From assembly GCA_016866975.1 (NCBI GenBank), contig VGKP01000002.1, forward strand, positions 18,866-82,865: a stretch of 64,000 nucleotides of DNA, read 5' to 3'. A model generated the notes under the pieces. It had not been told where the DNA came from and did no database searches. It was given only the letters and a program-made list of their open reading frames with translations. Positions 15,479-61,944 of the stretch are shown one piece after another; the stretch's first letter is position 1, and each line of letters begins with the position of its first letter. Made by a program: the position numbers and the translations under genes. This DNA is from Candidatus Pacearchaeota archaeon. Its GTDB lineage: Archaea > Nanobdellota > Nanobdellia > Pacearchaeales > GW2011-AR1.

Positions 15479-16206
15479 TTAAAGCTTCTCAATCGCAGGC
15501 AAAATATCCTCAAATTTTGACAAAATCATTAATGGCTTTCCTTTTTTAAGGCGCCCTTTATCATGAAATCCGAAATCAACAGCAATTGTACGTAAGCCAA
15601 CCTTACTCGCTTCAAAAATATCCCCCAGAGTATCTGTTACAAATATGCATTCATCAATCTTTAAATTGTGCTTTGAAAAAAGTATCCTAAATTTCTCTTC
15701 TTTAGATTTGTGCGTTTCAAATCCTAGAATTTCGCTGAATATGTGATTTATGTCAAGGAACTTGACTAAAACTCCAGCTTTTAAGCTGGAGTTGTTCCTT
15801 GAGCATCCAAAAAACGAGCGCCTGCATCAAACTGCGGCTTTTAAGCCGCAGTGGCGCATCGTTTTTTTGATTTTATTGTTCATAAAATAACTCTTAATTA
15901 TGATTTCTTTATTCGAAGTTATAATATACATTTTATATTTTTTGTTTATTTTAGACAGCTCCTCTTTTATTCTTTCCTCAATTTTCAATACCTTGAACTC
16001 CTCTTCCTGTAACTTAAAGAATTCATCAATTGGGCGTAGTTCCTTTGAAAGTAATAAATTGTCATATTCTTTAAATGCATTTCCGTTGAACATGTCCTTA
16101 TAACTATTTTTAGAAATTGAGGGTTTAATTTTTTATATATGCTGTATGCCAGATTAAAAGTGTCATGTATGACGCCATCAAAATCAAAGATAACCGACTT
16201 GATCAT
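15479..16206 (-). pseudogene. HAD-superfamily phosphatase, disrupted by a 1-nt frameshift and by repeat copy A
   Basis: Motif I MIKSVIFDFDGVIHDT (16206 down). Frame shift near 16120-16124 (CCC run). Motif II YIITSN. The ORF then reads into the repeat (..KKTMRHCGLKAAV stop). The C-terminal part FVTDTLGDIFEASKVGLRTIAVDFG continues in the same phase after the repeat and stops at 15479-15481. Confidence 0.8.
15748..15877 (+). mobile_element. Nested-hairpin repeat, copy A (short form, about 130 nt), inserted in HAD gene
   Basis: TTATGTC-CAAGGAAC-ttgactaaaa-CTCCAGC-ttttaa-GCTGGAG-tt-GTTCCTTG ... GCGCC-tgcatcaaa-CTGCGGC-ttttaa-GCCGCAG-t-GGCGC-atcgTTTTTTTGATTTTATT. Identical to copy B. Confidence 0.8.
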
Positions 16207-17233: not shown

Positions 17234-17244
17234 CGTTTAAAAGC
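17234..17244 (+). promoter_or_regulatory. BRE/TATA-like box (CGTTTAAAAGC) for tRNA-Ser(GCU)
   Basis: About 30 nt upstream of the tRNA 5' end at 17267. Same motif class as other promoters in the window. Confidence 0.45.
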
Positions 17245-17266: not shown

Positions 17267-17415
17267 GCCCGGATGGCCCAGCGGTTACGGCGCGAGATTG
17301 CTACCTAAGGAAACCAATGTTTCCTTGTGGGTCAACCTTCTTTAAGGAAGGAAGACGCAAATGGCAAATATCTCGTTTCCGAAAGGATTCCCAGGTTCAA
17401 ATCCTGGTCCGGGCG
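17267..17415 (+). tRNA. tRNA-Ser (anticodon GCU), class II, with 66-nt intron at canonical 37/38 position (17304-17369)
   Basis: Acceptor GCCCGGA/TCCGGGC. Anticodon stem CGAGA/TCTCG, loop TTGCTA|intron|A. Long variable arm TTTCCGAAAGGATT. T arm CCAGG-TTCAAAT-CCTGG. A relaxed bulge-helix-bulge can be drawn (TGCT/GGCA helix flanked by 3-nt bulges). Confidence 0.85.
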
Positions 17416-17524: not shown

Positions 17525-17787
17525 TGAAGATAGATCCCTACAAACACAAGGAAAGGTACTTAGCCTGGAAAGAAGAAGCCATGAAAGGCATTTCATGCGT
17601 TTCTAAGGCTAATTTTGAGATAATAATGAGATTCCTTACAGATATGGAAGTAGGAGCAAATATAGCGAAAGGAAGCACAAAGGGGGCGAGAAGCTACATC
17701 CGCCTTAATACGCTCAGAGGAAAGCTTTGCTTCTTTGCTAAGAAATTTAACGGGGGCAAGCATGGATTATTATGTCAAGGAACTTGA
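17524..17787 (+). pseudogene. Tyrosine recombinase/integrase, N-terminal fragment truncated by repeat copy B
   Basis: MKIDPYKHKERYLAWKEE..NFEIIMRFLTDMEVGANIAKGSTKGARSYIRLNTLRGKLCFFAKKF resembles the N-terminal SAM-like domain of archaeal integrases (from memory). No catalytic R..HxxR..Y region. The last 6 codons lie in the repeat. Adjacent to a tRNA. Confidence 0.45.
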
Positions 17788-17899
17788 CTAAAACTCCAGC
17801 TTTTAAGCTGGAGTTGTTCCTTGAGCATCCAAAAAACGAGCGCCTGCATCAAACTGCGGCTTTTAAGCCGCAGTGGCGCATCGTTTTTTTGATTTTATT
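17770..17899 (+). repeat. Nested-hairpin repeat, copy B (short form)
   Basis: Identical to copy A over about 130 nt, including the TTATGTC left junction and the TTTTTTTGATTTTATT right end. Confidence 0.85.
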
Positions 17900-21466: not shown

Positions 21467-21811
21467 TTATGTCAAGGAACTTGACTAAAACTCCAGCTTT
21501 TAAGCTGGAGTTGTTCCTTGAGCATCCAAACCTCAAGAATCGAAGATTCTTGATGGCATCCAAGAACAATGTTCTTGGTGAAACGAGCGCCTGCATCAAA
21601 CTGCGGCTCATCAGGAATCTAAGATTCTTGAATGCCATCGAGGATTAACATCCTCGAGGTTTAAGCCGCAGTGGCGCATCGTTTTTTTGATATTATTTCG
21701 GGAACCGAAGAAAACCAAACCTCCTCAGGAATCTAAGATTCTTGAATGCCATCGAGGATTAACATCCTCGAGGTTTAAGTCGCAGTGGCGGATTGTTTTT
21801 TTGATTGTAAT
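21467..21811 (+). repeat. Nested-hairpin repeat, copy C (composite: long form 21467-21697 plus partial second unit 21698-21811, carrying three inserted double-hairpin modules)
   Basis: Same ends as A/B. 50-nt module at 21531-21580 between the two hairpins. 52-nt module at 21608-21659 inside the loop of hairpin 2. Near-identical 52-nt module again at 21722-21773. Confidence 0.85.
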
Positions 21812-37562: not shown

Positions 37563-37572
37563 TAAGGGCTCT

Positions 37573-37796
37573 AGGGAACCTCGGCATCTTAAAGGGAGTT
37601 GACCCACAAGACGTCAGGAATAAAAGATTCCTGAGCGCGCTCAAGGACTTCGTCCTTGACGACCGTAGGTTTCTTAAAGGGAGTTGACCCACAAGAACCG
37701 TAGGTTCTTAGGAAGTTGACCCAAAAGGCCTCAAGAATCTGCCGATTCTTGACGGTCATCAGGGATTATAAATCCCTGAGAGAAACTTGGTTCCCT
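37573..37796 (+). repeat. Expanded composite member (H) of the hairpin-repeat family
   Basis: Closed by AGGGAACC/GGTTCCCT. Contains three tandem units CTTAAAGGGAGTTGACCCACAAGA (37588-37611, 37673-37696, degenerate 37707-37727) and two double-hairpin modules (37614-37659, 37731-37779). Confidence 0.7.
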
Positions 37797-37797
37797 T

Positions 37798-37810
37798 AGG
37801 TTTAAATATC
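37798..37810 (+). promoter_or_regulatory. BRE/TATA-like box (AGGTTTAAATATC) for serS
   Basis: TATA about 29 nt upstream of the serS ATG (37830), implying a leaderless or near-leaderless mRNA. Confidence 0.5.
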
Positions 37811-37829
37811 AGAGATTGCTAGTCGGACA

Positions 37830-39139: not shown

Positions 39140-40576
39140 ATGAATTTTAATTGGATTTTTAATCGTGATGAAAAAGTACCGCTCAATAATGATTCTTCGG
39201 AGAGAGTGGAAGGATTTGAGCACGAGTATGCGATTGAATTTGATGAGATCGCTGATAAAGATGAAAGAGACAACTATATTGTGCAGAAATTACGGGGAGC
39301 GGAGGGCGTTAATGCCCCCAATGTTTATGGTATGCCTGCGCGGCACCGTTTTAATGGAGGAAGAGTGCACATTGATATGAAACATCTTGAAGGGTGTACA
39401 CCAGAAGTTACGAATACATTGGATTTACTGAAATACGATCGAGAGTTAGACCTGTTTGTTCTTGATCTCTTTGGCCCAGCATACAAACCACGAATTTACA
39501 AAATGAGTAGGGACGCTCGCGATACATTTGGCGGACTTCACAGAAACATCATGACTAGGCTTAAACCCGATGTTCGGGACAGAGAATCACTCTTACTTTG
39601 GGCAGTAGTGGAGAAAGTTCTCAATGGAACAGGTTACCAGAATCCTGATGGCCAATACGAACTGCTTCAACGTCGCACATACATAGGAGATGCTCTATCA
39701 GACAACTCTACAGGGGGCAAAGGATCTCGGCCACTTCTTAATCTTAGGGAAGAGAGACACTGTAAGGTAGATGGATGGTACCGTTTTCATGATATTGCAG
39801 GCGATGGTAACATGAATCAGGTAGCACTTGCTCTTAGCCAGGTGCTCTGGAAATGTGTTCTACAGCTAGCAGAAGAAGATAAGCTGCCAAGAATCCCATA
39901 TTATTCAGGAAAGCATTCAAATGAAGCCGTACGCGATATGGATAGCATTTGCTGCCGCCACAGTGACTGGACTCTCAAAGGAACACCTCTTGAATTTAGA
40001 TCTCTCACTTCTGTCTATCGCGAATTCTACAAAGTCATTAGAGGAGAGCTCTATGGTCAGAATACATTTACTGACAAAATAATTGATGTATTTGGAGACA
40101 CAATTCCTGCTCTAGATAATATCAATAATGATCCCTATGCTCTTGCAGGAAGGCTCGATTGGGTGGGAAAGAAATTCATGATTGAATATTTTATGGGTGC
40201 AACAGGAAGAGGTCCTGAAAGCAATGAAGTACAGAGCCTTAATGTAGATTATCACCGTATTGACGAAGGAGGTTTGTTCCATCTTACACGTTTAAACGAT
40301 GGGTGGATTGAGAACGAGGTTTCGGATAAAGAGGCGCGCACCGCCAGAAATACTCCTCCATTGACACGGGCGCATGCACGAGGAGAAATTGCACAAGCAT
40401 TCTCAGAGATTGCCATGAAGAATGGATTATCCATTCTTGTTGACTGGGAATCAATTGCTCTTTACAATAAAAGTACATCTCCTGTCTGGACGTGCAATTT
40501 TCCCAGACCAGCACACACTTATGTTGAATGCGTGAGTGAATTCAAAAGTTTCATCAGTAATTGTTCCAAGGCATAA
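39140..40576 (+). CDS. Pup-ligase/deamidase (PafA/Dop) family protein, divergent paralogue (active-site HENY replaced by HRNI)
   Basis: GFEHEYAIEF, NGGRVHIDMKHLEGCTPE, FGGLHRNI, GSRPLLNLREERH, RFHDIAGDGNM, RLDWVGKKFMIEY, LNVDYHRI, TPPLTRAHARGE, VDWESI. Collinear with PafA motifs as I remember them. Confidence 0.75.
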   Translation: MNFNWIFNRDEKVPLNNDSSERVEGFEHEYAIEFDEIADKDERDNYIVQKLRGAEGVNAPNVYGMPARHRFNGGRVHIDMKHLEGCTPEVTNTLDLLKYDRELDLFVLDLFGPAYKPRIYKMSRDARDTFGGLHRNIMTRLKPDVRDRESLLLWAVVEKVLNGTGYQNPDGQYELLQRRTYIGDALSDNSTGGKGSRPLLNLREERHCKVDGWYRFHDIAGDGNMNQVALALSQVLWKCVLQLAEEDKLPRIPYYSGKHSNEAVRDMDSICCRHSDWTLKGTPLEFRSLTSVYREFYKVIRGELYGQNTFTDKIIDVFGDTIPALDNINNDPYALAGRLDWVGKKFMIEYFMGATGRGPESNEVQSLNVDYHRIDEGGLFHLTRLNDGWIENEVSDKEARTARNTPPLTRAHARGEIAQAFSEIAMKNGLSILVDWESIALYNKSTSPVWTCNFPRPAHTYVECVSEFKSFISNCSKA

Positions 40577-40710
40577 ATTATTACTTTAAAATTCGTGGGG
40601 CCGTGGGTCAGTTTAGCAAAGCTTAAACCTTCGGGAGGTATGCACCTCATACACCAAATAAGCAATATAAACATATAAAATATTAAAAAGGGTTTATATT
40701 TGCCAAATTG

Positions 40711-42177
40711 ATGAAAGACAGGATTACACCTCGCGAAGCATTGGAAAGAAAAGCTGCCCCTCTCGTGTTTTTTGACCATATTCCTCAATATAACCGGAAT
40801 CGAATAATCTCGAGTGAACAGGAGAATGGGCAGAAATTAAGGAAAAAAGTGCATAAGGATTACGAAAAGAAAAGTGGTTGGGAGACCGAATTTACAGCAT
40901 ACTTGTCTGGATTTCTGCCAGATGTGGTGAGTCTTGGGGGAAGGATATATGCAGATGCAAACCATGTAGAGTTTGCACGGGCGGAATGCTCAAGCCCTCT
41001 GGAAGCAGTTGTTCACGAGGATGCTTTTGACAGGTTCGGTTTTAATCTTCTCACAGGCACCTTGAGACTTGTTCGTAAGCTCTATAAGAACAGTATAGAT
41101 TTTGGCAATCCGAAAAGGAATTCTCCTCCTGTAAGCTTCGGCTTCCACGAAAATTACAGCACAAAAATAATGTTTGGCCAAAGCAATCCTTCAGGTTTGT
41201 TGGCATTGGTTCCTCACCTAATATCTCGTACAATCTTTGGGGGTGCAGGATCATTACATAAGGCAAATAAATTTTTAAGGGCCCAGCGCTCTCTCTTTGT
41301 TAATAAATTGTGGAGCTTTAATGCTATCAAGGACGAAAGAGGGATAATCTGCACTCGCGTACAGCCACACACAGAGATTTCTGGTCTTCAGAGGCTACAA
41401 CTTACTTGTGGAGACGCCCTTATATCTCCAGTAAATCGCTTCCTTCTTTATGGCACAACAGCAACGGTAGTTGACCTAATAGAAGATAGGATAATTCCAT
41501 TATGTGATTATGACACAAGCTACGCAGTTGAAGATTTTCATGGAATAACTTATGACCCTGAGAACTATATATTAAGAGGGTTCCCATCTAAGAATTGGAC
41601 TGCTCTGGATGTACAAAGGAGGATTCTTGATAGTGCAATTAAGTCTTACTCGCATAGGGATCCTCAGACAAATGCCATTCTGTTTCTATGGGAAGATACT
41701 CTTAATAAGTTGGAATATGATCCATTTCAGCTTGTTGGAAGGCTAGATGCAATTACCAAGAAAGCATTATATACTTGTCTTGATGAGAGATTTCCAGATG
41801 TCCCTGAAGATTCTTTTTGGCAGATGAGGGGCATAGACATGAATTATCACGATATTAATCCAAACTATAGTATTTTTCAGGTAATGCGTTCCGAGGGGAT
41901 TATGGAGGATTTATATTCCAATAAATTATTTTCATGGTATATGCAAAATCCGCCTCCAAAAACCAGGGCGCATTTTAGGGGCAATCTTGCAAAAATTCTA
42001 ATTAGGGCAAAAGAGGATTTAGCAGTCCTTGATGGAGATGAATGGGATAAATGCGTTCCATTATCAGATATCTACAATATTTATCCGAATCTATGGGATT
42101 TAGATCTTTCTATAGATGACCCGTTTAATTCTTACAATGATCGTCTCACAGAGATAAAGGGAATTTTATCTCATTAA
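40711..42177 (+). CDS. Pup-ligase/deamidase (PafA/Dop) family protein, motifs intact
   Basis: GWETEF, GGRIYADANHVEFARAECSSP, FGFHENYS, SRTIFGGAG, AQRSLFV, RGIICTRVQPH, RLQLTCGDALISP, RLDAITKKALY, IDMNYHDI, PPPKTRAHFRGN. Confidence 0.8.
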   Translation: MKDRITPREALERKAAPLVFFDHIPQYNRNRIISSEQENGQKLRKKVHKDYEKKSGWETEFTAYLSGFLPDVVSLGGRIYADANHVEFARAECSSPLEAVVHEDAFDRFGFNLLTGTLRLVRKLYKNSIDFGNPKRNSPPVSFGFHENYSTKIMFGQSNPSGLLALVPHLISRTIFGGAGSLHKANKFLRAQRSLFVNKLWSFNAIKDERGIICTRVQPHTEISGLQRLQLTCGDALISPVNRFLLYGTTATVVDLIEDRIIPLCDYDTSYAVEDFHGITYDPENYILRGFPSKNWTALDVQRRILDSAIKSYSHRDPQTNAILFLWEDTLNKLEYDPFQLVGRLDAITKKALYTCLDERFPDVPEDSFWQMRGIDMNYHDINPNYSIFQVMRSEGIMEDLYSNKLFSWYMQNPPPKTRAHFRGNLAKILIRAKEDLAVLDGDEWDKCVPLSDIYNIYPNLWDLDLSIDDPFNSYNDRLTEIKGILSH

Positions 42178-42192
42178 CTTAAACGAGCCTAA

Positions 42193-42319
42193 TTATGTCG
42201 GGAACCGATGAAAATCACACCTTTCAAGGTATGGTGGTTCCCGAGCATCTCCAAAAACGAGCGCCTGCAACAAACCTCGGCTTTTAAGCCGAGGTGGCGC
42301 ATCGTTTTTGTGATATTTA
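42193..42319 (+). repeat. Nested-hairpin repeat, copy E (variant stems)
   Basis: TTATGTC-CGGGAACC-gatgaaaatc-..-GGTTCCCG-agcatctcc-AAAAACGAGCGCC-tgcaacaaa-CCTCGGC-ttttaa-GCCGAGG-t-GGCGC-atcgTTTTTG. Inner stem changed on both arms relative to A/B. Confidence 0.8.
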
Positions 42320-48875: not shown

Positions 48876-48960
48876 TGGGCCCAGGAGGAATCGAACCCCC
48901 GACTTTCGGTTGCTCCAAATAGCTCTGGAGCCGAAAATTATACCATTTAACTATGGACCC
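48876..48960 (-). tRNA. tRNA-Trp (anticodon CCA) with a 14-nt intron after position 37
   Basis: Reverse complement: GGGTCCA-TA-GTTA-AATGGTA-TAAT-T-TTCGG-CTCCAG[agctatttggagca]A-CCGAA-AGTC-GGGGG-TTCGATT-CCTCC-TGGGCCC-A. Intron TGGAG pairs with CTCCA of the anticodon loop. Confidence 0.8.
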
Positions 48961-57440: not shown

Positions 57441-57572
57441 ATAAAATCAACTTATGCTGGATTTTTAAATTTTTCTAAATGCGATCGACTCCTATCTAAT
57501 CTATCGATAGACAGTTCGGTTATGTCGCGAATTAGGTTGAAAACTACATTCTTTAGGGCGCAGATGAATTCG

Positions 57573-57649
57573 CGAGCATGTCTAAAAACGAGCGCTGCAA
57601 CAAACAATACCCTTTAAGGTATGGTGCGCATTGTTTTTATGATCTTCAA
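57573..57649 (+). repeat. Nested-hairpin repeat, copy F (solo second-hairpin unit, variant stems)
   Basis: CGAGCATgtctAAAAACGAGCGC-tgcaacaaaca-ATACC-ctttaa-GGTAT-g-GTGCGC-attgTTTTTATGATCTTC. Overlaps the 3' end of the cdd pseudogene. Confidence 0.7.
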
Positions 57650-60180: not shown

Positions 60181-60432
60181 ATGGTTTCCTTAAAAGTATG
60201 GATGGGAGTCACAGGAAATCCGCTAAATTTGGGAGTTCTAGAGAAAAGAGTCAAAGACATGGTTGTTGGAGAGAAAGGATTTATCGAGTATAGGGCAATC
60301 TGTTTTATTGAAGGCCAGGTACATTGTCTGAATTTATGTGCAAATGTATATCCAAATTTTAGACAAAAGAAGGGCATGCCTATAGAAAGGATTGGAAAGA
60401 GAAAAATTGATTATGTCAAGGAACTTGACTAA
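60181..60432 (+). CDS. Hypothetical ORF whose last 7 codons lie in repeat D (possibly the 5' half of a gene split by the repeat)
   Basis: The ORF ends ..KIDYVKELD with the stop inside the repeat. See the finding on frame arithmetic. Confidence 0.35.
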   Translation: MVSLKVWMGVTGNPLNLGVLEKRVKDMVVGEKGFIEYRAICFIEGQVHCLNLCANVYPNFRQKKGMPIERIGKRKIDYVKELD

Positions 60433-60590
60433 AACTCCAGCTTTTAAGCTGGAGTTGTTCCTTGAGCATCCAAACCTCAAGAATATTCTATTCTTGATGG
60501 CATCCAAGAACAATGTTCTTGGTGAAACGAGCGCCTGCATCAAACTGCGGCTTTTAAGCCTCAGTGGCGCATCGTTTTTTTGATGATATT
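60411..60590 (+). repeat. Nested-hairpin repeat, copy D (long form with one double-hairpin module at 60475-60524)
   Basis: Same as A/B plus a 50-nt module CCTCAAGAATattctATTCTTGAtggcaTCCAAGAACaatGTTCTTGGTG. One mismatch in the inner stem of hairpin 2 (GCCTCAG). Confidence 0.85.
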
Positions 60591-61500: not shown

Positions 61501-61584
61501 AGAAGAAGGCAATATCATTGCTTGAATAAGCTGAAGAATACTAAAGAGTAACTCTTTTAAACCATCTTCTCTCTGTCCATATAT

Positions 61585-61773
61585 GCCCTTGTAGTCTAGC
61601 AGTCAAGGACGAGGCCCTCTCGCATCGCCGAAGTTTAAGTCGTCGAGACAATAACTTCAGTCCATCTTCGGACAGGCACTGTATTTGTTGAAGCCCACAA
61701 GGTTTCGCGCCAGTGTCTCATATAGAGACAGTGGAGAACGGCCTAAACCCGGGTGCGAATCCCGGCAGGGGCA
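61585..61773 (+). tRNA. tRNA-Glu (anticodon CUC) with 116-nt intron (61623-61738) and atypical T-loop TGCGAAT
   Basis: GCCCTTG-TA-GTCT-AGCAGTCAA-GGAC-G-AGGCC-CTCTCG[intron]C-GGCCT-AAAC-CCGGG-TGCGAAT-CCCGG-CAGGGGC-A. CTTTTAAACC box about 30 nt upstream. Confidence 0.75.
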
Positions 61774-61944
61774 TTCTTGTTTTGAATGAAACGAAAAACA
61801 GGTGCAACTGACGGCACTAAGAATTCACTCAATACCTTTTCGAATAGGGTCTTTTTTACAATGGTATCCGTACGGTTCAGACAAATTGTCTTAAACGCCC
61901 TTCTCTAAAGAAAGGTTTATAAGAATAATATTTAGTGATTTCTC

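Follow-up and report, generated by a model that had tools for sequence, protein, structure and literature searches.

The tRNA-Ser(GCU) gene of a Candidatus Pacearchaeota archaeon, read here from a 64,000-nt stretch of contig VGKP01000002.1 (the window, with a G+C content of about 38%), is interrupted by a 66-nt intron that is ordinary in itself, and whose two hairpins are, as far as sequence comparison goes, an architecture inherited within an old family of introns (Family A) in Woesearchaeota/Pacearchaeota-type DPANN archaea, not parts borrowed from a repeat. The same comparisons indicate a kinship, real and unusual, between this intron and the units of a hairpin-rich array located outside any tRNA gene, upstream of the cognate synthetase gene serS. 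In the reading favoured here, which is considered reasonably probable, an ordinary Family A intron was partly copied in inverted orientation into the serS spacer, and was there duplicated and interrupted. The initial annotation had proposed that the intron is assembled from parts of a dispersed repeat; this does not appear to hold, the resemblance being not above chance. The features concerned are listed in Table 1.

Table 1. Features of the tRNA-Ser(GCU) gene, the serS-proximal array and the dispersed repeat D1 in the window
Feature	Position	Strand	Basis
Likely TATA box, TTTAAAA, about 28 nt upstream of tRNA-Ser	17236..17242	+	sequence reading
tRNA-Ser(GCU) exon 1, to nucleotide 37	17267..17303	+	Rfam tRNA match, ARAGORN -i, identity with intronless orthologues
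66-nt intron, canonical 37/38 site, Family A member	17304..17369	+	folds, ARAGORN, homologues L005, L006, L030-L035
Hairpin 1, UAAGGAAAC-caau-GUUUCCUUG	17306..17327	+	fold; stem covaries in homologues
Hairpin 2, outer helix GUC/GAC, AA/AA internal loop, inner helix CCUUCU/GGAAGG, loop UUAA	17331..17356	+	fold
tRNA-Ser(GCU) exon 2, A38 to discriminator base	17370..17415	+	Rfam, ARAGORN, orthologue comparison
Hairpin-rich array between Na+/H+ exchanger gene and serS, outer stem GGGAACC/GGTTCCC	37570..37800	.	folds, z = -5.9 and -7.0
Intron-like module C (CTTGTGGGTCAACTCCCTTTAAG)	37587..37610	-	iterated profile E=0.0025; direct repeat of module B, 85-nt period (D8/D11)
Double-hairpin insert splitting module C, TCAGGAAT..ATTCCTGA GCGCGC TCAAGGAC..GTCCTTGA	37614..37659	+	72% over 47 nt to D1 inserts
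Intron-like module B, CTAAGAACC-tac-GGTTCTTG-TGGGTCAAC-TCCC-TTTAAG	37670..37711	-	nhmmer E=6.5e-4, blastn E=2.9e-4
Partial module (TTTTGGGTCAACTTCC)	37711..37726	-	profile E=2.7, alone not significant; one of three D8 direct-repeat units
Double-hairpin module common to D1 inserts	37731..37779	+	blastn
Degenerate module like the intron 5' end (CCTAAGGGAACCAAGTTTCTCTCA)	37777..37800	-	profile E=0.026 to 0.39, marginal
Dispersed structured repeat D1, full copies	15748-15877, 17770-17899, 21467-21693, 42193-42316, 57520-57645, 60411-60586	+	covariance model
D1, partial copy	21692-21806	+	

The tRNA-Ser(GCU) intron and Intron Family A

The gene at 17267-17415 is matched by the Rfam tRNA model with 40.7 bits; it is missed by ARAGORN at default settings, and with introns allowed it is reported as tRNA-Ser(gct) with a 66-nt intron from 17304, i(39,66). 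The joined exons are letter-identical to the intronless gene in locus L007. The upstream TTTAAAA may be the promoter element of the gene, and orthologues have TTTAAAA or TTATAA boxes at an equal upstream distance. In the pre-tRNA fold the anticodon stem is prolonged by a 4-bp helix formed by nucleotides 32-35 with the 3' end of the intron (U32-A, U33-A, G34-C and C35-G in a hand parsing of the fold), which is flanked by the 3-nt bulges UAC and AUA, both cuts falling after the second bulge nucleotide. The outer helix of this bulge-helix-bulge (BHB) is a single pair, C+2:G-7, which is the relaxed form; the +2/-7 pair is C:G in window-type introns versus G:C in L030-L033.

Interruption at 37/38 and a BHB at the junctions are features of the canonical archaeal intron. 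As in other introns of this kind, the insertion follows the anticodon by one nucleotide, pairing of the anticodon loop with the intron 3' end gives a 4-bp helix between two 3-nt bulges, and the exons rebuild a tRNA identical to intronless orthologues. Compared with most of them, the window intron is longer, more structured and has an outer helix of only one pair, and a strict BHB scanner fails to detect it. Presumably it is cut out at the relaxed BHB by the tRNA splicing endonuclease, EndA, after which the exons would be ligated by RtcB. The end of the intron (17357-17369) reads GCAAAT-GGCAAAT, a 7-nt duplication relative to L032 and L033 (…ACGCAAAT), which gives a second register for the 3' splice-site pairing. 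Apart from the tRNA, no Rfam family matched at the intron, and a role as C/D box guide RNA of the tRNA-Trp type was rejected, since neither RUGAUGA nor CUGA occurs in the 66-nt sequence.

The intron folds with -22.7 kcal/mol (z = -3.4), and none of 200 shuffled sequences folds as well. The first hairpin had been described at 17307-17326, where AAGGAAAC-caat-GTTTCCTT is indeed found; the second, given as 17336-17351, is present but larger, extending over 17331-17356 as GTC-AA-CCTTCT-ttaa-GGAAGG-AA-GAC. Both hairpins covary across Family A introns. The stem of hairpin 1 appears in homologues as AAGGAAAC/GTTTCCTT, AAGGAACC/GGTTCCTT, AAGAAAC/GTTTCTT and GGGAACC/GGTTCCC, and is missing from the L006 intron as a clean 22-nt indel. 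The inner helix of hairpin 2 varies between CCTTCT/GGAAGG, CCTCC/GGGGG, TCCC/GGGA and TTCC/GGAA, and its plan of outer helix, AA internal loop and inner helix recurs with other letters in L030, L031, L032 and L033. The letters TCAAC-T-C-T are invariant in all eight aligned Family A introns. The loop sequence TTTAAG is plausibly inherited within the family, because TTTARG after CCTYC recurs in several members (L005, L006 and the initiator tRNA-Met intron of L022).

When one genome per species was scanned, 18 loci had a matching tRNA-Ser 5' exon, and 12 of them contain an intronless tRNA-Ser(GCU) gene with near-identical exons. Clear homologues of the window intron were present in L005 (67 nt) and L006 (45 nt), and a metagenome scan added L030, L031/L035, L032, L033 and L034, so that the family, with the two-hairpin plan in common, is represented in at least seven other Woesearchaeota-type tRNA-Ser(GCU) genes. 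A profile built from the introns of other genomes matches the window intron at E=3.7e-12. This survey of orthologous genes, which the initial annotation had called for, indicates that the intron is not recent in the window genome; Family A is called the older element from the breadth of its distribution rather than from a tree. Near-identical tRNA-Ser(GCU) exons come from bins labelled Woesearchaeota, Pacearchaeota, Nanoarchaeota and, in one case, Parvarchaeum, and the closest SerRS proteins are about 76% identical, the named ones being from Woesearchaeota, Pacearchaeota and Nanoarchaeota. The source is accordingly an uncultured DPANN archaeon and does not belong to the Thermoproteales. Genes of the window are also present on contigs of JGI metagenome 3300020200 and of several Logan assemblies.

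The profile of tRNA-Ser introns also matches the initiator tRNA-Met intron of L022, a Pacearchaeote, at E=6e-4 in 243 kb, and the Family A module is therefore common to tRNAs of different identity. The tRNA-Ser intron of L027 resembles this L022 module. Within about 81 kb of the window genome the search gave no further Family A intron, and by profiles the other two intron-bearing tRNA genes of the window are unrelated to the module. The first of these, at 48876-48960 (-), has a 14-nt intron and is called Gly(CCC) with a non-canonical intron position by ARAGORN, and Trp(CCA) with an intron at 37/38 by hand. The other, tRNA-Glu(CUC) at 61584-61774 (+), has an intron of about 116 nt and was recovered by ARAGORN only with introns allowed, being missed by default ARAGORN and by Rfam at the gathering threshold. 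Its intron contains GTTGAAGCCCACAAGG, resembling an array unit with no significant match; a relation to D1 or to the array units was rejected, the best value being E ~0.9. All introns seen are single and most were placed by hand at 37/38, as opposed to multiple or non-canonical positions; for the window Gly/Trp and Glu genes the ARAGORN placements differ slightly.

At least three unrelated intron types occupy the 37/38 site of tRNA-Ser(GCU). A second family, 65-75 nt long and unrelated to Family A, occurs in L011, L012, L022, L028 and L036, and consists of a hairpin TTTTAGAAAAA, then GAAAACTAC, then CTGCAAAGCAG. Short introns are present in L026 (17 nt) and L029 (15 nt). In addition, L010 (410-446) and L014 (4698-4734) carry 5' tRNA-Ser(GCU) halves ending exactly at nucleotide 37, both followed by a hairpin ATACAGTGCTATAAAAATAGCACTATA and having no 3' half nearby; these may represent either halves of a split tRNA or the duplicated attachment sites of some integrated element.

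The array upstream of serS

The array of about 230 nt comprises three to four copies of the first ~45 nt of the intron, inverted, truncated and in part tandemly arranged, together with double-hairpin modules. Its relation to the intron was initially noticed as a short complementarity, GTGGGTCAA in the intron to TTGACCCAC in the serS-proximal units; the complement is exact, and this 9-mer has three exact occurrences in the window, one in the intron and two in the array. With a profile made only from the introns of other genomes, window positions 37710-37672 (-) are the next match after the intron itself, with 15.7 bits and E=6.5e-4, and the maximum in 100 block-wise dinucleotide-shuffled windows is 12.0 bits. 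In a blastn comparison the intron and the array are 77.6% identical over 49 nt (E=2.9e-4), and module B shares 36 of 45 positions with the window intron. The match is colinear, running from CCTAAG, the first bases of the intron, through hairpin 1 with compensatory changes and CTTGTGGGTCAAC to TTTAAG. In the reciprocal search with module B in 234 kb of other genomes, the top four matches are all Family A tRNA-Ser introns. The iterated profile adds 37610-37587 (E=0.0025), and 37800-37777 remains marginal. An initial strict, ungapped-style local alignment had given p ~0.02 (6 of 300 shuffles reaching the score), and the signal strengthened once gaps and the family profile were used. The similarity thus survives the shuffled-sequence control that the initial annotation had named as a check. 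The shared ancestry it had suggested for introns and intergenic repeats is accordingly supported for the intron and the serS-proximal units and not for the dispersed repeat.

A 37-nt unit with TAAG(G)AA at its borders is repeated in tandem as modules B and C, and the intron itself holds a TAAGGAA direct repeat 37 nt apart. In the minus-strand reading, the hairpin-1 part of module C reaches 37677 and is broken up by a double-hairpin insert. The insert at 37614..37659 is 72% identical over 47 nt (E=0.015) to the D1 inserts at 21611-21657 and 21725-21771, and positions 37721-37780 match 21715-21772 in plus orientation (blastn, 73% over 60 nt, E=1e-4). Because these other parts match double-hairpin inserts of D1, the array is a mosaic that joins the intron and D1 only indirectly. 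The modules are without the 3' strand of hairpin 2, the intron 3' end and the splice-site pairing, and the array copies are therefore decayed fragments rather than functional introns. An independent assembly that breaks off within the repeat has an identical 3' half of the array, and so the array is not an assembly artefact.

Two other interpretations of the array were rejected. A decayed intron-containing tRNA gene would not fit, as no exon-like sequence lies beside any module. A conserved serS leader was also considered; the orthologous spacer between the exchanger gene and serS in L023, the only relative that keeps both genes adjacent, is 42 nt long and has no array, and in L024 and L025 the two are separated by other genes, with no units upstream of serS. 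The likely serS TATA box at 37801-37808 is located downstream of the array, which is therefore probably not in the serS leader, and there is no T-run terminator between the stop codon of the exchanger gene (37562) and the array. Neither the array nor D1 had a match in Rfam, even at E up to 10, and a metagenome scan for the array-unit pattern gave 0 matches in a collection that did not include the window's own contig. Between the likely TATA box and the start codon of serS, the 10-mer GAGATTGCTA at 37813-37822 (+) equals the last 10 nt of tRNA-Ser exon 1. It was rejected as a remnant of a tRNA gene and is probably a coincidence, because L025 has TTTAAATACAGATTAGTC / CAGATTAGTC at the equivalent place. 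Directly downstream of serS, two adjacent ORFs, 39140-40576 and 40708-42177 (+), match the Pup-ligase family PF03136 (E=7e-42 and 5e-60).

The dispersed repeat D1 and double-hairpin inserts

D1 is an unclassified structured repeat family of about 125 nt, present in the window as six full copies and one partial copy, all on the plus strand and often located directly behind a stop codon. Two hairpin domains, in which 13 pairs are compensatory, are followed by a terminal T-run, and the conserved motifs are TTATGTC, GAGCATC, AAACGAGCGCCTGCA and GGCGCATCG. The consensus has the order TTATGTC-P1-GAGCATC, then AAACGAGCGCCTGCA-hairpin-GGCGCATCGTTTTT, and the intron does not match it. The D1 covariance model R1 recovers the six copies at E below 1e-24 and finds nothing at the intron or the array, and the intron profiles match no D1 copy. 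A relation between D1 and the intron was therefore rejected, as neither kind of model connects them and the words they share are common. In particular, the equation of the first intron stem with the outer stem of D1 (CAAGGAAC) comes down to AAGGAA, which occurs 133 times in the window, and TTTAAG, taken for a loop shared by the repeat family, occurs 89 times against 81 expected. The sequences indicate that D1 is linked to the array only through separate double-hairpin inserts.

These double-hairpin modules have the form YCARGAAT..ATTCYTGR, twice, often after CATC, and are located at 21530-21580, 21607-21660, 21721-21775, 60474-60525, 37614-37659 and 37731-37779. They form inserts in D1 copies, at two distinct sites, and also lie within the serS-proximal array, and one of the inserts is flanked by repeated GCATCCAA. 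A BHB scan of the borders of D1 and the array gave hundreds of chance matches per strand with a scanner that also misses the real intron; no motif occurs at the element borders in all copies, and that of CAAGGAAC-type D1 is missing in the copies at 42.2 kb and 57.5 kb. Searching about 260 kb of relatives and flanks gave no further D1, and a scan of viral contigs gave 0 matches. The possibility that D1 is a small protein gene starting at a conserved ATG was rejected, since the reading frame is not the same in all copies, whereas the stems covary. Two D1 copies that are 100% identical flank a 2-kb segment with tRNA-iMet, a CDP-alcohol phosphatidyltransferase gene and tRNA-Ser.

Small palindromic repeat families are known elsewhere, such as the bacterial REP/BIME sequences, the Rickettsia palindromic elements and the mitochondrial double-hairpin elements. 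Like families of the REP/BIME type, D1 and the inserts are short, structured, dispersed and mutually nested, and tend to lie at gene ends. They have no sequence relation to these families, however, and with its covarying stems and conserved single-stranded motifs D1 is more like a structured RNA.

Origin of the intergenic copies and comparison with known systems

Taken together, the comparisons suggest that the intron predates the array and that intron-derived sequence most likely spread into the spacer, since the family is widely distributed, L023, L024 and L025 are free of the array, and the array module is nearest to the genome's own intron. Of the two directions offered initially, the dispersal of intron-derived sequence fits these observations, and invasion of the intron by the repeat is not supported. 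Hairpin 1 of module B (AAGAACC/GGTTCTT) is equally close to the L032/L033 introns and to the window intron, and as the evidence from the window genome covers about 81 kb, other copies or a closer tRNA intron may exist elsewhere in it. In the proposed history, the first ~45 nt of the intron, comprising its 5' end, hairpin 1, the GGGTCAAC linker and the 5' strand of hairpin 2, would have been copied in inverted orientation upstream of serS, and the copy would then have been tandemly duplicated in the spacer. The 37-nt tandem unit, bounded by the direct repeat TAAGGAA of the intron, points to later slippage as a probable means of this duplication. The copies would finally have been interrupted by the small double-hairpin modules that also insert into D1. 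At CCTAAG the edges of the modules fall on the 5' splice end of the intron, which may instead hint at copying from the excised RNA, through an RNA intermediate, or at a mobile module with defined ends. Neither a reverse transcriptase nor a recombinase was observed nearby.

A mobile origin of this kind would make the tRNA-Ser intron, the initiator tRNA-Met intron and the serS-proximal array all insertions of one small hairpin element, which lands in anticodon loops, where it becomes an intron that splicing makes harmless, and in intergenic DNA. It could account for the same module in tRNA-Ser(GCU) and initiator tRNA-Met introns, for the patchy presence of introns among near-identical tRNA genes with at least three unrelated types at one site, for array modules that begin with the sequence of the intron 5' end, and for hairpin 1 being a separable 22-nt indel in L006. 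However, in the 243 kb of loci searched, all but about 9 kb of which come from other genomes, profile matches lie only inside tRNA genes, and about 81 kb of the window genome yields only the intron and one array. The array copies are also truncated, lacking the 3' half, and the intron and array copies come with no terminal repeats, target duplications or transposase. Both the single-element origin and the landing of such an element in anticodon loops and intergenic DNA are considered unlikely. Still less credit is given to the idea that Family A introns might be semi-autonomous modules copyable outside tRNA genes, of which the copies at serS would be either transposition footprints or working targets of the intron, as in yeast.

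Much the same low rank falls to two further readings. That the likeness of intron and array is a coincidence produced by abundant AAGGAA-type hairpins in an AT- and purine-rich genome is in keeping with the strict alignment (p ~0.02) and with AAGGAA and TTTAAG being common words; this was already disfavoured, and is made very improbable by the profile from other genomes, whose score no shuffled window reaches, by colinearity over the 5' end, hairpin 1 with its compensatory stem changes, linker and TTTAAG, and by the reciprocal search returning Family A introns as the top four. Alternatively the complementarity might be used, plus-strand array RNA, as exchanger 3' UTR or as part of an upstream serS transcript, pairing with the pre-tRNA or the excised intron, so that the two to three array sites complementary to the intron would couple tRNA-Ser processing to a neighbouring gene. 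The complementary stretch is perfect over 13 nt and extends to 38 of 49, the array adjoins the cognate synthetase gene, and transcription from the exchanger gene meets no T-run terminator before it. Free tRNA introns of yeast (fitRNAs) are described in a preprint as acting on complementary mRNAs and lowering those with long complementary stretches (bioRxiv 10.1101/2025.11.19.689297), and the window likewise combines a tRNA intron with a long complementary stretch in another region; those introns, though, are eukaryotic, and the array is lineage-specific. The three relatives examined have no array upstream of serS, and the modules look decayed and are broken up by inserts. Given that the array is lineage-specific and that the serS promoter, with its likely TATA box, is probably downstream of it, both the pairing and the coupling are given a very low probability, a shade below that of coincidence. 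The partial inverted copying of an ordinary Family A intron thus remains the preferred explanation.

Similar introns in tRNAs of different identity have been described in Thermoproteales (Fujishima et al. 2010, as summarised in PMC4033280 and PMC4090602), and intron transposition in that group had been cited as an analogy by the initial annotation. It applies in one respect, the module being found in both tRNA-Ser and initiator tRNA-Met, with patchy presence among close relatives, and not in another, as these genes belong to different genomes and the sharing is across genomes rather than within one. Family A differs further in being found in a DPANN phylum and only at canonical positions. In Caldiarchaeum subterraneum, disruption of a tRNA gene by an integrating element connects mobile DNA with the gain of introns and with dispersed tRNA fragments (PMC3293823); the 5' tRNA-Ser halves ending at nucleotide 37 in L010 and L014 are reminiscent of that case, unlike the window intron and array, with which no recombinase-bearing element is associated. 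A review states explicitly that it is unknown by what means archaeal tRNA introns arise or move (PMC4090602).

Prior evidence on the movement of archaeal introns consists of similar introns in different tRNA genes. From Thermoproteales we know of no report of a tRNA intron copy outside any tRNA gene, and in this the Family A copy in the serS spacer stands apart. Family A introns are patchily present, are shared between Ser and initiator Met tRNAs, and have a partial copy outside tRNA genes. The intergenic copy shows copying without a tRNA target and therefore narrows the possible mechanisms, and the serS spacer provides a concrete locus to follow in populations and transcriptomes.
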